A DNA stretch of 64,000 nucleotides from Octopus vulgaris (Eukaryota), in contig OX597815.1 of the NCBI GenBank assembly GCA_951406725.2, positions 199,082,001 to 199,146,000 of the forward strand, read 5' to 3'. This document shows, piece by piece, positions 521 through 58,504 of this stretch (its first letter is position 1; every line of letters starts with the position of its first letter). Made by a program: the position numbers and the translations under genes. The notes beneath the pieces are model-generated. The model worked only from the letters and a program-made list of their open reading frames with translations. It was not told where the DNA came from and did not search any database.

Positions 521-669
521 GTTTTATATATATATATATATATATATTAGATAAAAAACGAATGATTTATACTTGGTAGCTTACTGGTAGAGCACGGTTA
601 CTCTCAGAGTGGTTCGCTATGTATTTGGTTAATGAAACACAGAACATGAAGGATGCATGAATTTTTATT

Positions 670-745
670 AATCACTACAATTGTTTCGATGCTGCAGATA
701 TGAGTTTTCGAACAATGGGAGTTTGTGCATTTTGTGATGGCATTT
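670..745 (-). ncRNA. Dead hammerhead remnant (3' half only)
   Basis: Minus strand GCATC-GAAAC-AATT-GTA-GTGAT with palindromic stem III and an upstream ATCAC partner for stem I, but no CUGANGA. Confidence 0.35.
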
Positions 746-1391
746 TGTGATGACTAGAATGTTCTTTTGTAGCTCTTTTGCCAGATTCATCATGGCTAAA
801 AAAGAATTCTGTTTTGGAGAATTGAAAATGTTTGTTGTTGTGGATTTTGCGTTGGTTAGGGATCCCGTTTATATTTCTATTTGTGCGACGAGTCCTCGGG
901 AGATGGGTAAATGGACAATTATGCTGTAGACATAATCTGTTACGCTGGGGATAGCGGCAGACCCTAGGGTTCCGTGTAGCATGAGTGATTTTTTTTCAAA
1001 TTCGATTTAATATTTGGTGAAGGTGGTGGTGGTGGCGGTGGTGGTGGTGGTGGTGGTAGTGGCGTTGTTTTAAATTGTGCACTTTGAAGGTAGCGGCTGT
1101 TGTGAGGAGGAATTGAACGTCTAGTCCCTCTGGTAAATGAGTGAATTTGCAATCACTGTCAATGCGCAGCCTCTTGTGTAGTGAATAGCGGTATATTTTG
1201 GGGGTTTCGTGTATAGGCTGTAAGAGGCATAGATTTTAATTTGTGTACATTTACGGAGATGTACTTGCATAGCAAGTGATTTGATCTGAGATCGTGTGCT
1301 GAAACGAAAACAATTGCAGCGTGGAAGGTGTTTGTAAGCCATTTAAGAAACACACAAAAGCCGTTCGATTCACTTCAACATTTAAGTTTAA

Positions 1392-1442
1392 TTTGTCAAA
1401 ATATTTTCGTCGCTTTAAGACCGCGACCTGTTCACTGACAAA
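1392..1442 (-). ncRNA. Minimal type I hammerhead-like motif, G3-C8 core variant
   Basis: Minus strand TTTGTCA-GTGAACA-G-GTCGC-(GGTCTTAAA)-GCGAC-GAAA-ATAT-TT-TGACAAA: 7-bp stem I, 5-bp stem II, palindromic stem III (AATATT). Confidence 0.7.
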
Positions 1443-2155
1443 ACGTGTTTGGCAAATTCATTAAGGGGTCTTCAAGTAAGCATTTAGTTGGTTTATCACA
1501 AATTGGGAAAGTAGTAGGTTGAAGCTGTGTCTGTTGCTGTTTTTGAGGTGGTTGTTGTAGCTGTAATTGTTGATGTTGTTGTGATTCTTGCTGCTGTAAT
1601 TGTTGCTGCTGTTGAAGATATGATGGGTGGATAACAAACTCTGGTTAAATGGACTGTGAACAGCTGGAGTCTGAGAAGTTGACCGTTTCATTAAGTAGGC
1701 CGTCAATTGAAGTTGAATTAAGGAGTGTTAAAGGTTGAGGCAGGGTCAGTTGTTCCTGCTGCGGTTGTTGTTGTTGTGGTGGTAGTGGTGGTGATTGTTG
1801 TTGTTTTTGCTGAAGTGGTCGTTGTAGTTGCTGTGATGGCTATTGTGGTTACCGAGGTGGTTGTTGTTGATGTTGTTGTTGTTCTTGGTGTTGACCAGTA
1901 TTTGAAGAGAAAAACCCGTTGGAGTTTTTCAAAATGTCCGTTAATGAATTTAAATGCCATTTCAATGTGTTTAAGTTTGTTTTGAATCTGCTTCTCGGAG
2001 CGATCTCTGAAAAGGTGAATTGTACGTCTGGCTATTAGGTCGCGGCATGATGTGTCTATGTTTTCCGTTCGAGCAAGACAGTACCATGAATTTACCAGAA
2101 GGTCTATTTCATTCTTTGACCAATTTTCTATAGATTTTTGTTGTTGAGTAGTCAT
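1432..2155 (-). pseudogene. Decayed ORF: N-terminal Myb/SANT-like (trihelix-type) domain plus Gln/Pro-rich region, about 240 aa
   Basis: ORF 1718-2155 has WSKNEIDLLVNSW...RSEKQIQNKLKHI. A 1-nt shift near 1925-1930 gives QHQEQQQHQQQPPR*PQ*PSQQLQ...YLQQQQQLQQQESQQHQQLQLQQPPQKQQQ...NTFCQ*; all three internal stops are one C>T change from Gln codons. Confidence 0.7.
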
Positions 2156-2659
2156 CTTAGAGTTGTTGTTTTTTTTGCTTTTTTTAATATATTTGTTTGT
2201 TAATTATCGATTTACTCCTTGCGTTAGTGTTTAGTTGTGTAGAAACATATGCATCAGTAGTGAAGAGTTAGTGTAGATTGTATTTGTATTTGAGATAAAT
2301 ATTTACATATGCTTGAAGACAAAATATTATACGATATGTATATGATAGTGCAGAACTTTTTGTTTTCATAAGGAAATTTGTAGTTCGAAAGTGAAGTGTG
2401 TTTGGTTTTGCGAAATTCTGTGATAGTTTGATACATATAGTCTTATATATGCGGCCATTAGTTTTAAAGGGAGAGTTTTCGACAGGGATACATGAATGAA
2501 AATTCAAAAGTGTGTGCGTAAATTTTGGGTGCTCTATGAATTTAATAAAATCGCAGAATGCATGTGTGCGTGCGCATATATTCAATAGAATCACAGGAGA
2601 ACTTTATACTGTACTCACGAGAAATCATTTCTTTTTCCACAGGTTATTGCAGGCGTTAT

Positions 2660-3709
2660 GGGGTCAAAATTAATCTTCTGTTACTTTCTCATCGCAGCTT
2701 TCGCAGGAATTTGGAACCAAAATTTAAAGATTTCTGAGTTGATATGGTTTCTGTTTCTTCAACTACTTACTAAACAGAGCGATGAAAAACGCTTCCGGGT
2801 GCCACGGTGTCTCCTCTCCCCTTCACCGTTCCCTCTCTCTCACTCTTCCTCCTCGACTCTCTCGTCGCTGACACGTGATGAGAGGGAAGCTATCTTTCCG
2901 ACTACTACCTTCACAAAGACTAGACGGGCTCATCTTGTCTCTTCATAAGCCCGTCTCCTTGAACGTTCAGAATAATTTTTCCATCGTCTTGGCTTAACAG
3001 CCCTCATTGTTTGTTTTTATTGTTTTCTTCTCATTGTTCTGTCTTTTACTGTTTTTACTTTTGTATTGTTTTACTGTTTTGTTCTCACTGTCCTGTTCTT
3101 GTTACCACTTTCACCCTCCGCAAAAAACCCCAAACTTTATTTAATTTGCTTTGCGGGAAGGACCGTTTCAATGAAGTCGCGTCTTGTTCTTACCTTCGAA
3201 ACGCAGAGTAGAAGAAACAGGGACAACTGAAGAAGGGGAATATACCTTGTGTTGTATGATTGATTGATTGATTGATTCTAGTTTCAGCTTATGAGCTGTG
3301 GCCATGCTGGGGCACCGCCATTTGGTGTTGCTACTTGGTTTCACTTCATGGAGGCTTTCTAGCAACTGCTATTTGGTGCATGAGAGAGTTCGATGCAGCT
3401 GCCCTCATCTGCCCCTCCTGCCGTGAAGTTGGTTCATCTGGGACACCTGACAGGAAGAGATCCAGCTTCATTTTAAAGACATCTGTATCCACCCCATGCA
3501 GGTCTCTCAGGTTCTTCGGGAGGATATGTCTCGTTTCTCTGGGGGTCTTCTTTCGTTGTTTGAAAAACAGTTCGTTTCTATGTTTTTGTTTTTATGCTTT
3601 CGTTTCTCATTGTGTTCAAAGTGTTTTGATGTCCTGTTTTGATGCATGTATATATACATATATATGTAGGGATGTACATATATGTATGTGTATATACATA
3701 CATTTATAT

Positions 3710-3715
<6 letters not shown>
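2660..3715 (+). mobile_element. Family P1 copy 2, interrupted by a CR1-like LINE fragment
   Basis: 3190-3258 and 3527-3650 match 225-400 colinearly; ends in (TA)n; 5' boundary uncertain. Confidence 0.55.
3258..3527 (-). mobile_element. 5'-truncated CR1-like LINE 3' end with (TCAA)n tail
   Basis: Minus frame reads ILPKNLRDLHGVDTDVFKMKLDLFLSGVPDEPTSRQEGQMRAAASNSLMHQ, resembling a CR1-group ORF2 C-terminus; short tandem tail; splits the P1 element. Confidence 0.7.
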
Positions 3716-3756
<41 letters not shown>

Positions 3757-3763
<7 letters not shown>

Positions 3764-3934
3764 CTACTCGCTACAGCAAAAATCGAAGAACTGAAGTCGG
3801 GCAAGCTGGTCGCTAGAATTTTTAAAATTCGTTATTGAATCAATTCAATATAGAGATAACGAATTTTTAAAATTCTAACGGCCAGCTTGTCCGACTTCAG
3901 TTCTTCGATTTTTGCTGTAGCGAGTAGATTATAT
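3757..3934. repeat. Inverted repeat, about 79-bp arms and 20-bp spacer, abutting (TA)n
   Basis: 3757-3835 is the near-exact reverse complement of 3856-3934; unique extension runs to the next (TA)n at about 4125. Confidence 0.9.
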
Positions 3935-30174: not shown

Positions 30175-30479
30175 AAATCCATATAAGTATATATACATTA
30201 CGTATATTTATACATACATGATGACATACATACACAGACACACACACACATACACATATATATATATATATACATCACACATATATATATATACATGCGT
30301 ATAAATGTATGTGATGCGCACTCCATACGATCTTTTTACTTTTTCGTTTTCCTCTCTTTCTCTTTCTTATTCTTTTACCTCCTCTTCTCCCACTATTCTA
30401 TCCTATTACTCTGTCAATCTCTCTCCCTCACTCCTCCTCCCTTGCCCATCTTTCTTTCTTTTCCTGACTTGTGTTTCTT

Positions 30480-30890
30480 TCATTCTCTCCGTTGTAGCTG
30501 GAACAAGGAAGACGTGTTCTTGTTTGTCTCTTGTCCAAGCTTGATTTACGCGTTCTCCACCACAACCGCGCTTAGGCTTGGCAGCCCTTACTGTTTGTTT
30601 TCACTATCCTCTTTGCGTTACCAATTTTTGACTCGCCGCAAAATCCCAAATGTTATCTAATTTGCTTTGCGGGAGCAACTCTTTTATCGAAGGCGGATAT
30701 TGTTGTATATGCTCGAAATACGAGACCAGGGAAACAGCAAACAACTGATAAAGGGTCGTTCTTTATGTTGTTTGTTTTGTTTTCCATTTGTGTCTTTCGT
30801 TGTTCAAAGAAATAGTTCACTCTCCATGTACTCGTGCTTCGTATTTTTTGCTGTACACGTTTCGTGACGTCCTTTACCCACATTTGCATA
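30480..30890 (+). mobile_element. Family P1 copy 3
   Basis: GCTC-GAAAT...ACAA-CTGATAA-AGGG; similar to 3120-3260 and the reverse of 48540-48760. Confidence 0.6.
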
Positions 30891-30944
30891 TATATACATA
30901 TATAAATATATATATCTATATATATATATATACATTTATATAAA

Positions 30945-31345
30945 TAAGGTTAAGATCGTTATTTAAGACACGGGTCATATCAGTTGGCCAGCATGGGAAT
31001 TAAAACCTCATAGGTAATAATTATTATTAAAATTATAATTAAGGGTGTCTAAGAGATACCACCATGCTAGATATACCAGCCAAAACTTGACTCTAAAACT
31101 ACATTAAATGTTCATACAGCACCAGAAGACATAGAGACAAAATAAACATGCAAAAAGAATTATTGGATAATTCCAGATCCCGGACTTCAGACTCTGCGTA
31201 TGAAATGCTTTGCCTTCATCAGTGGAATATATGTAAATATATTTGTCTTCTCTGCAGGTGCTGTATGAACATCTAATGTAGTTTTACAGTCAAGTTTTAG
31301 TTGCTATATCTAACATGGTGGTATCTCTTAGATACCCTTAATTAT
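30945..31345 (-). mobile_element. PLE-end element with inverted repeat (31034-31124 / 31257-31345)
   Basis: Arms reverse-complementary; hammerhead in the spacer; starts at (TA)n. Confidence 0.75.
31170..31228 (-). ncRNA. Type I hammerhead motif with one core change
   Basis: ATTCCA-CTGATGA-AGGC...GTCT-GAAG-TCCGGGA-TC-TGGAAT; perfect 6-bp stem I; GAAG in place of GAAA. Confidence 0.7.
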
Positions 31346-48409: not shown

Positions 48410-48950
48410 TGGAAATGGATGCGTGGCGTTCAGTCATATAATAATGTAAATAATATATATATATATATATATATACATATTTACATATAAATGCATATAC
48501 ATATGCATATATGAGTACAGGGCGTCATAAAACGTTAAGAACATGAAATACGAAATACGAAAACATAGAAAACGAACTTTTTTGCAAACAACGAGAGAAA
48601 CAAATGGAAAACAGGACAAGTAACATAAAGAACGACCCTTCATCAGTTGTCGGTTGCTTATCTACACCACATTTCGAGCAATTCGTGACAGTATGTGTCT
48701 TTGAGACAACAGATGCTCCCGGAAAGCAAAATAAAATTGGGGATTTGCGGAGGGTCAAAGCTGGTAACAACAATTGGACAGTGAAAACAAACAGTAAGGG
48801 CTACTAAGCCATAGCGAGGTGAGGTGGCGAACGTTGGTGGAACAAGCTTTGACAGGAGACAGACAGGAACGCGTCTGATCTGTGTGACAGACCAAAAGGA
48901 AAGAATGAAAAGTCGGGATGCGTGGCGTTCAGTTATTCCATAAATGAAAT
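48410..48950 (-). mobile_element. Family P1 copy 4, with terminal direct repeat GGATGCGTGGCGTTCAGT
   Basis: Repeat at about 48417 and 48916; permuted core GCTC-GAAAT...25 nt...CTGATGA-AGGG on minus; the same terminal motif occurs at 498-512. Confidence 0.65.
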
Positions 48951-58029: not shown

Positions 58030-58464
58030 AGGCACAGGAGTGACTGTGTGATAAGTAGCTTGTTTACCAACCACATGGTTCCGGGTTCAGTCCCACTGCG
58101 TGGCACCTTGGGTAAGTGTCTTCTACTTATAGCCTCGGACCGACCAAAGCCTTGTGAGTGAAACTAAAAATCCCGTCGATATTGGTATAGGCGCAGGAGT
58201 AGCTGTGTGGCTGAAGAAGGTAAAGCAAATATCTTGACATATCTTGCAAAACCTGAAACCTGCAGGTACCACATTATCCATTTTCCGGGTGTTTCATGTT
58301 TCAGATGTTCTCCCTGGAGGTAAGACGGTTTTTTTTCTCTATTTTGTTGCACACACGCATTTTTACTAATACATACGCGGTGAAGCTACACTTTAGCGTC
58401 GTATTTTTACGTTCGCTATTTCCAGTAAATATCGGTACTTAGTTGTGCCATTTATTTACTAATT

Positions 58465-58504
<40 letters not shown>

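Follow-up and report, generated by a model that had tools for sequence, protein, structure and literature searches.

The DNA analysed here is a stretch of 64,000 nucleotides of Octopus vulgaris (assembly GCA_951406725.2, contig OX597815.1, positions 199,082,001 to 199,146,000), referred to as the window and numbered from its first letter, and it is a repeat-rich eukaryotic sequence in which long microsatellites occur alongside numerous dispersed repeats. Near its start lies a block, at 550-2640, whose minus strand carries, from 5' to 3', a decayed open reading frame (ORF1) with a Myb/SANT-like domain and a polyglutamine (polyQ) region, a first hammerhead fold (HHR1), a second decayed frame (ORF2) with two CCCH-like finger repeats, a second hammerhead fold (HHR2), a tail and a (TA)n tract. 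The two frames, the two folds, their order and orientation, and the (TA)n end are directly visible, and all results on the block rest on this one copy, within the 64-kb window. An earlier account based on the letters alone (the sequence-only reading) had described a minus-strand frame opening at the ATG at 2155 with a Myb/SANT-like segment, a final TGA that forms part of a hammerhead core, a second dead hammerhead at about 670-745 and an end of the block at (TA)n; translation bears out the first of these claims and the analyses described below bear out the other three. The second ORF, between the hammerheads, is an addition to that account.

The strand skew is uniform over 560-2550 (G 518, C 237), as compared with G 211 and C 232 in the neighbouring DNA. 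At the 5' side the end of the unit is undefined, and a different repeat family aligns from 3071 on. Among public sequencing runs, 20 of the 24 rows listed contain the stretch or part of it, and six contain at least half of its words, under three organism labels, with a fourth label at 0.23 (rows with shares below 0.2 were left out of account); no RNA runs containing the stretch were found among the runs listed. The near-identical sequence in these runs indicates that the locus is real and shared, and one of the runs may be the source sample. As the shares fit one orthologous locus and many copies alike, they say nothing on copy number, and an estimate of copy number from run shares against run size was rejected as uninterpretable.

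Two hammerhead folds on the coding strand

HHR1 is a minimal hammerhead of type I, with a stem I of 7 bp, a stem II of 5 bp (1427-1409) and a palindromic stem III (1405-1400), and with predicted cleavage after 1399. Its core comprises G3 (1435), U4, G5, A6, A7, C8 (1430) and A9, with an extra G at 1428, the GAAA box and a UU site, and it is non-canonical, G3 and C8 being its Watson-Crick 3-8 pair, a point on which the sequence-only reading is silent. The TGA at 1434-1432, which closes the Gln frame of ORF1, is U4-G5-A6 of this core. In dinucleotide shuffles of 550-2640, none out of 3000 matched the strength of HHR1 and 47 gave any match at all, HHR1 being one of two matches in the window; the first version of the descriptor missed the site because it did not permit the extra base, and it was then widened, so that the threshold is post hoc. 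Whatever the threshold applied, Rfam gave no match to a hammerhead family, the hammerhead pattern had no match in metagenome and viral contigs, and the folding energy taken alone is weak (z of -2.35 for 1392-1442 and of -0.07 for the HHR2 region).

The minimal hammerheads of Penelope-like elements (PLEs) have an extra base 9/10.1, a G10.1-C11.1 pair, a palindrome at 15.2-16.2 and covariation of positions 3 and 8, and their activity is low and dimer-dependent (PMC4209133). HHR1 carries all four of these marks. Hammerhead cleavage is restored in part by the double change C3G/G8C in the Anolis PLE PAc (PMC11167929), and HHR1 may have retained a weak residual self-cleavage.

HHR2 is a hammerhead scaffold that is devoid of the first core box: three bases, with no CUGANGA, separate stem I (738-734/675-671) from stem II (730-727/692-689), and the remaining scaffold is present, with GAAA at 687, a palindromic stem III (684-677) and a UA site. 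With a descriptor fitted afterwards, a scaffold of this kind was found in one of 3000 shuffles and at three sites of the window (128 kb of strand), two of them inside the block. Both hammerheads lie on the strand of the ORFs, and each is at once followed by A(A/T)TAAA. A similar TG-rich word of 16 nt stands at 1348-1333 and 644-629 (minus strand), about 40-50 nt behind each hammerhead; the similarity is not significant, and the word could be a downstream polyadenylation element.

Two decayed reading frames

ORF1 spans 724 nt which, minus one base, make 240 codons and a stop. The single frameshift described in the sequence-only reading does lead into a Gln/Pro-rich frame ending at the TGA at 1434-1432, but its site is better placed downstream of the proposed 1925-1930: a scan of possible junctions against three relatives gave a summed score of 463-468 at 1915-1909, with the best position at 1914-1910, versus 418-420 at 1930-1927. 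Similarly, the three premature stops (TAA 1851, TAG 1842 and TAA 1647) are present, but their supposed origin from CAA or CAG is not visible, as only two of them lie in a Gln/Pro tract, the other one being in a linker that is not Gln-rich. The two Gln/Pro-rich blocks hold 34 CAA, 12 CAG and 1 CGA in 96 codons, with repeat periods of 3, 15, 21 and 33. In two of the three relatives a Gln run follows directly behind the Myb domain, at the same position as in ORF1, and for this reason the Gln frame is preferred over the Thr frame. The excess of CAG over CGA that this frame shows (12 to 1, p=0.0017) was not taken as proof, since CpG loss would explain it equally well and the background offered by the window is too small.

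The best Pfam match of the Myb segment is Myb_DNA-bind_4 (PF13837), at E=0.0078 and 17 bits, below the cut-off of 27, so that the Myb call rests on a relative, P0003, which reaches 31.7 bits against the same family, above the cut-off, and aligns with the window by BLASTP at 39% identity (E=6e-18). The profile search proposed in the sequence-only reading as a check thus falls short for the window segment and succeeds for its relative; of four aligned members, three match PF13837 at E<=0.1 and one is above the cut-off. The relatives come from a HMMER scan of 1.84 billion proteins with the Myb segment, which gave four matches, three of which were kept (P0003-P0005); these are unnamed singleton clusters from read assemblies, 77-157 aa long, and the pairwise identity among them and the window segment is 34-43%. 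P0002, the top phmmer match, is a phytoplasma protein with a 17-fold repeat and 31% identity, and it was dropped as an artefact of summed repeats. In P0003, residues 100-157 are rich in Thr and Ser, which is what a CAA tract would encode after a frameshift, a composition which suggests that P0003 may also be a decayed copy.

The structure model of the Myb segment shows three helices (predicted local distance difference test score, 69.5) and its comparison with GT-1 gives a Z of 5.4 and a root-mean-square deviation of 3.4 over 59 aligned residues, a tie with homeodomains and unrelated chains. Fold searches with the model in the PDB and in a viral library gave nothing significant, with no Foldseek match at E<=0.001, and sequence searches of the PDB gave chance rows only. 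In the Atlas, Myb/SANT clusters lie at 0.82-0.86 for the segment, which is a lead only. No related protein was found among 21 candidates of a word-index search, the profile built from the four sequences recovered only its own three members among 704 candidates, a locus search based on the Myb alignment and the proteins found no relative in 553 viral and 594 metagenome candidates, and none of four window translations looked up exactly was present in the collection. All together, ORF1 is a genuine, dead gene for a Myb/SANT-like protein with a Gln/Pro-rich tail.

ORF2 is recognizable by its internal repeat and by its scarcity of stops: it has three, the two remaining frames have 9 and 14, and 70 of 5000 shuffles do equally well. 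Taken by itself, its longest uninterrupted stretch is not exceptional (418 of 2000 shuffles). The two finger repeats are identical at 11 of 26 residues, a score reached in 1 of 2000 shuffles. When they are compared over 24 codons, seven of the ten identical residues are written with different codons and the identity at the three codon positions is 14, 17 and 8 of 24; this synonymous divergence is a mark of past selection on the protein. The C-x8-C-x4-C-x3-H spacing of repeat 2 is what we take to be that of CCCH-type zinc fingers (C-x8-C-x4/5-C-x3-H). Divergent fingers of 24 aa often drop below search filters. A locus search based on the fingers found no relative among 32 viral candidates, and a word-index search with 995-678 among longer proteins found none among ten. 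The linker at 1062-1022 is His-rich, or Pro-rich in another frame.

From finger 2 the frame is open to HHR2 (182 of 3000 by chance), and its stop, TAG 677-675, spans the HHR2 cleavage site. Because a perfect 13-nt tandem duplication, which may be recent, shifts the frame, the original stop may have been TAA 670-668, just behind stem I; with or without the duplication, ORF2 ends at HHR2.

Table 1. Positions of the features of the block in the window
Feature	Position	Strand	Basis or remark
Non-coding 5' region	2156..2640	-	left limit undefined; G-over-C skew fades at ~2550-2650
ORF1, decayed: Myb/SANT(trihelix)-like domain, then Gln/Pro-rich tail	1432..2155	-	240 codons, one frameshift, three internal stops
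Myb/SANT-like three-helix domain	1910..2155	-	Pfam PF13837, relative P0003, structure model
T5 run, best frameshift site of ORF1	1910..1914	-	junction scan against three relatives
Two Gln/Pro-rich blocks, one frame	1519..1899 (1899-1720, 1626-1519)	-	codon counts, repeat periods, relatives
HHR1, type I minimal hammerhead	1392..1442	-	descriptor search, 0/3000 shuffles as strong
ATTAAA immediately behind HHR1	1387..1392	-	possible polyadenylation signal (putative function)
ORF2 frame, decayed	675..1457	-	260 codons, 3 stops (1253, 1238, 998), first in-frame ATG 1250
Finger repeat 1, CCCH-like; Tyr and Arg in place of the first two Cys	1131..1202	-	repeat comparison
Finger repeat 2, C-x8-C-x4-C-x3-H spacing	897..968	-	repeat comparison
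Perfect 13-nt tandem duplication	727..752	.	shifts ORF2 frame
HHR2, hammerhead scaffold without first core box	671..738 (5' edge alternatively 751)	-	descriptor search
AATAAA immediately behind HHR2	664..669	-	motif read
3' tail, HHR2 to block end	550..670	-	G12 lies 137 nt from 550
(TA)n tract at 3' end, probable insertion target	~525..548	.	sequence read

Origin of the block

We read the block as a decayed PLE-type cassette devoid of reverse transcriptase (RT), in which two ORFs run in the same direction and each one terminates at a minimal hammerhead with a polyadenylation-like signal. The cassette would have been moved in trans, and we give this reading a probability of roughly four in ten. 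A non-autonomous unit of PLE type had been proposed in the sequence-only reading. Its hammerheads of PLE type, its end at (TA)n, the fact that no RT is in view and the Myb domain with polyQ agree with that proposal, but the unit as described there is incomplete, its second ORF having been missed. No Pfam match to an RT, an endonuclease or a transposase was found in the minus frames of 660-1440 and 2155-2700, on both strands of 2600-3100 or in the plus frames of 560-1440. The movement of unrelated genes in trans by PLE termini has been described (PMC3846280), and (TA)n is among the targets known for PLEs (PMC8557442). PAc copies end, in AT-rich DNA, 111-118 nt into an ORF that starts in the hammerhead, with an optional tail of 30-40 nt (PMC11167929); the distance from G12 of HHR2 to the end of the block is of the same order, which supports the PLE-type reading.

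We infer the transcription, cleavage, mobilization and protein function of the cassette as follows. The parent element would have been transcribed as one RNA, whose HHR2-tail end would have been recognized by a PLE protein with RT and GIY-YIG domains encoded elsewhere; this protein would have introduced a nick in AT-rich DNA and made a copy of the RNA in (TA)n. Behind ORF1 and again behind ORF2, the RNA might have been cleaved or marked by the hammerheads, probably with the help of a partner or a protein, since stem III is a short palindrome. The Myb protein would have been a DNA-binding and the finger protein an RNA-binding one, the RNA probably being that of the element itself. The present copy is dead as a coding unit.

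A number of observations weigh against this interpretation. There is no second copy of the block within the window, no target-site duplication (TSD) was found around it, and the search for a matching 5' pseudo-long terminal repeat (pLTR) found none, 62-181 of 200 shuffles scoring equally, with loss by truncation being possible. The HHR1 and HHR2 regions are dissimilar (89 of 300 shuffles score equally); neither hammerhead is a copy of the other, so that they do not form a pLTR pair, whereas the described PLE cargo sits between matching pLTRs (PMC3846280). In PAc, the hammerhead marks the start of the ORF rather than its end, and its cleavage is dispensable for insertion in vitro (PMC11167929). 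As regards the proteins, the finger repeats have no match in Pfam, NCBIfam, the PDB or the Atlas, the tail of P0003 has no significant alignment to the Gln frame, and the three relatives are seen without their DNA context.

The relation between ORF1 and HHR1 also bears on the number of genes. The chance that ORF1 runs on without a stop behind its last Gln block and enters the core in the right phase was estimated from shuffles as 0.105 x 1/3 = 0.035, and the overlap of stop and core is suggestive, not decisive, evidence for a link between the two. This overlap would vanish as evidence if ORF1 and ORF2 had once been a single ORF of ~490 codons, encoding the Myb domain, polyQ and two fingers and ending at HHR2, with HHR1 within the coding sequence and the TGA arising from an extra frameshift, in what would still be a PLE-type RNA. 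The ORF2 frame is in fact open from 1457 through HHR1 to 1254 (68 codons; 145 of 3000 shuffles do so by chance), its first ATG being at 1250, and it is +1 to the Gln frame, the same type of slip as at 1914-1910, with a T4 run at 1443-1440; moreover, PLE hammerheads are known to overlap coding sequence (PMC11167929). This openness agrees with a fused ORF as well as with two separate ones. Nevertheless, the fused frame requires the extra frameshift to fall within ~25 nt, the ATTAAA behind HHR1 parallels the AATAAA behind HHR2, and none of the three relatives, which may be cut short, reaches a finger region. We consider one ancestral ORF quite unlikely, yet a serious rival to the two-ORF reading.

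A different view of the block is that of a patchwork, in which one or two unrelated PLE ends and a fragment of a finger gene were inserted independently next to a pseudogene with Myb domain and polyQ (host MSANTD-like or Harbinger-derived). PLEs make up 6.83% of the O. vulgaris assembly (PMC13282606), HHR1 and HHR2 differ, and the window contains another hammerhead on the plus strand (58206-58273), with an intact CUGAAGA core, a 6-bp stem I and a 10-nt palindromic stem III, ~195 nt before (TA)n. The cargo-free piece to which it belongs (58206-58468) ends at this (TA)n, and therefore such pieces do insert alone here, a further point against a single cassette. A patchwork, however, needs two ORFs that end at same-strand hammerheads by chance, with scaffolds so sparse in the window, and no junction, TSD or change of skew was seen inside the block; we hold it to be unlikely. 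If copies proved the block to be a patchwork, it would be ordinary repeat debris.

At the other extreme, the block might represent a dispersed family of RT-less retroelements whose ribozyme-punctuated bicistronic RNA encodes Myb/polyQ and tandem CCCH proteins, the G3-C8 core supplying the first stop and cleavage freeing or starting the translation of ORF2, and which would spread regulatory genes by means of PLE enzymes. This possibility draws on the intergenic hammerheads of RNA viruses, which can drive translation (PMC13725137), and we consider it doubtful. The notion of a family spreading a transcription factor-like gene, as put forward in the sequence-only reading, is unproven: the block may stem from a spreading family or from a one-off event. 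The role of hammerheads in PLEs is described as still open in the accounts available (PMC8557442, PMC7761336, PMC11167929). If the cassette is what we propose, hammerheads that coincide with the ends of its two small ORFs would offer a direct test of the punctuation of polycistronic RNA, and a natural G3-C8 core would extend the U3-A8 variant reported in PLEs.

Some other features of the window deserve mention. The hammerhead piece on the plus strand at ~58161-58467 sits between two parts of a common repeat and looks like a cargo-free PLE end. A repeat family with (TA)n ends occurs at 220-531, 3071-3730, 30478-30945 and 48444-48910, two of its copies bracketing the block; in this family, CGAAA stands ~30-40 nt before CTGAWNA, that is, with the core boxes in reversed order. 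This arrangement is reminiscent of the 'half core' at the 3' ends of Naiad (PMC8557442); words of the family, as well as other short words of the window, are absent from the Naiad supplement (PMC8557442). A word of at least 15 nt is shared by 48416-48434 and 48917-48935, at both ends of the copy of this family at 48 kb, and by 497-511; it resembles a PLE tail or target in this respect. At 3757-3934, a near-perfect inverted repeat of ~180 nt lies beside (TA)n, resembling a miniature inverted-repeat transposable element or a fold-back insertion, and its Rfam microRNA matches are far below the cut-off. Finally, on the plus strand, an open frame of 119 codons with a hydrophobic start (2589-2948) lies behind a splice-acceptor-like site at ~2642 and has no Pfam match.

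Comparison with known systems

Myb-like proteins encoded by Harbinger transposons and the domesticated MSANTD/NAIF1 proteins resemble ORF1 in having a single N-terminal SANT/Myb/trihelix domain in ~240-350 aa (PMC9392472), and a protein of the PF13837 type is the second gene of Harbingers (PMC9392472), so that the block might be seen as a non-autonomous PIF/Harbinger transposon with its Myb gene, in which the hammerheads are passengers. An inverted pair of 15 nt with 87% identity does exist at the ends of the block (554-568 / 2622-2636). It is, however, one of 59 pairs in 2.6 kb, and the end-to-end alignment of the block in search of terminal inverted repeats (TIRs) is at chance level (140 of 200 shuffles). 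For an element of this kind, which the sequence-only reading had named as an alternative, the block thus shows no TIRs above chance level and no transposase match in the frames scanned. In addition, ORF1 differs from the described Harbinger/MSANTD proteins (PMC9392472) in its 3' hammerhead and in having unnamed singletons as its closest relatives, and Harbingers amount to less than 1 Mb in O. vulgaris (PMC13282606). An origin of this kind is very unlikely.

The metazoan non-LTR (long terminal repeat) retrozymes are also non-autonomous, carry type I hammerheads and have been proposed to use the PLE machinery (PMC7229834, PMC7761336). They consist of tandem monomers of ~300 nt with like hammerheads (PMC7229834, PMC7761336), whereas the block is 2 kb long, has ORFs and shows no tandem repeat.

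In the Terminons of bdelloid rotifers, as in the block, several co-oriented accessory ORFs are combined with several hammerheads (PMC6431247, PMC7761336). This layout, with unlike hammerheads (PMC7761336, PMC6431247), makes it conceivable that the block was once part of an autonomous Terminon-like PLE of larger size, the RT of which lay in a portion that this copy lacks; 5' truncation is usual in PLE copies, and the block has no defined 5' end. Nonetheless, the Athena RT unit of Terminons is 3'-terminal and a telomeric stretch lies behind the last hammerhead (PMC6431247). The block has neither of these and ends in (TA)n: behind its hammerheads there is no telomeric stretch and no ACACCC or TCACCC, with a lone CCCTAA at 861, far from both. 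Terminons also reach up to 40 kb, as compared with 2 kb, and carry other cargo, Myb and CCCH not being among the accessory ORFs named in the part of the description available (PMC6431247). We regard this origin, too, as doubtful.

In its proposed mechanism the block resembles the trans-mobilization by PLEs (PMC3846280), and its layout is that of a small Terminon (PMC6431247, PMC7761336). It fails the tested features of autonomous PLEs, Terminons and Harbingers, and is without the matching pLTRs of described cargo units. In the literature searched (Repbase and the original description of Terminons being outside its scope), no description was found of a unit combining PLE and hammerhead with octopus, Myb, CCCH or host-gene transduction. 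HHR1 has the type I topology of PLE minimal hammerheads together with the extra base 9/10.1, the G10.1-C11.1 pair, the palindromic stem III and the 3-8 covariation (PMC4209133). It differs in the length of its stems, those of Schistosoma mansoni PLE hammerheads being of 4-5 bp (stem I) and 7-8 bp (stem II) (PMC4209133), and in its G3-C8 pair, the variant reported there being U3-A8 (PMC4209133). Unlike the PLEs with minimal hammerheads described in the available account (PMC4209133), the two motifs of the block are not copies and flank no RT. PAc, a Poseidon PLE of Anolis, has a hammerhead that overlaps the reading frame, an end 110-160 nt behind it and an AT-rich target, as in the block (PMC11167929). 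The reading frame of PAc, which codes for RT and GIY-YIG, begins at stem II (PMC11167929), whereas those of the block end at the hammerheads and encode neither. The cargo of Pen3a-NRPS in Adineta vaga is an intact host gene, with matching pLTRs and an 8-bp TSD (PMC3846280), as opposed to the two small decayed ORFs, the unlike hammerheads and the absence of a TSD seen here. Like the octopus block, though, Pen3a-NRPS is an RT-less cargo with PLE termini, presumably moved in trans (PMC3846280).

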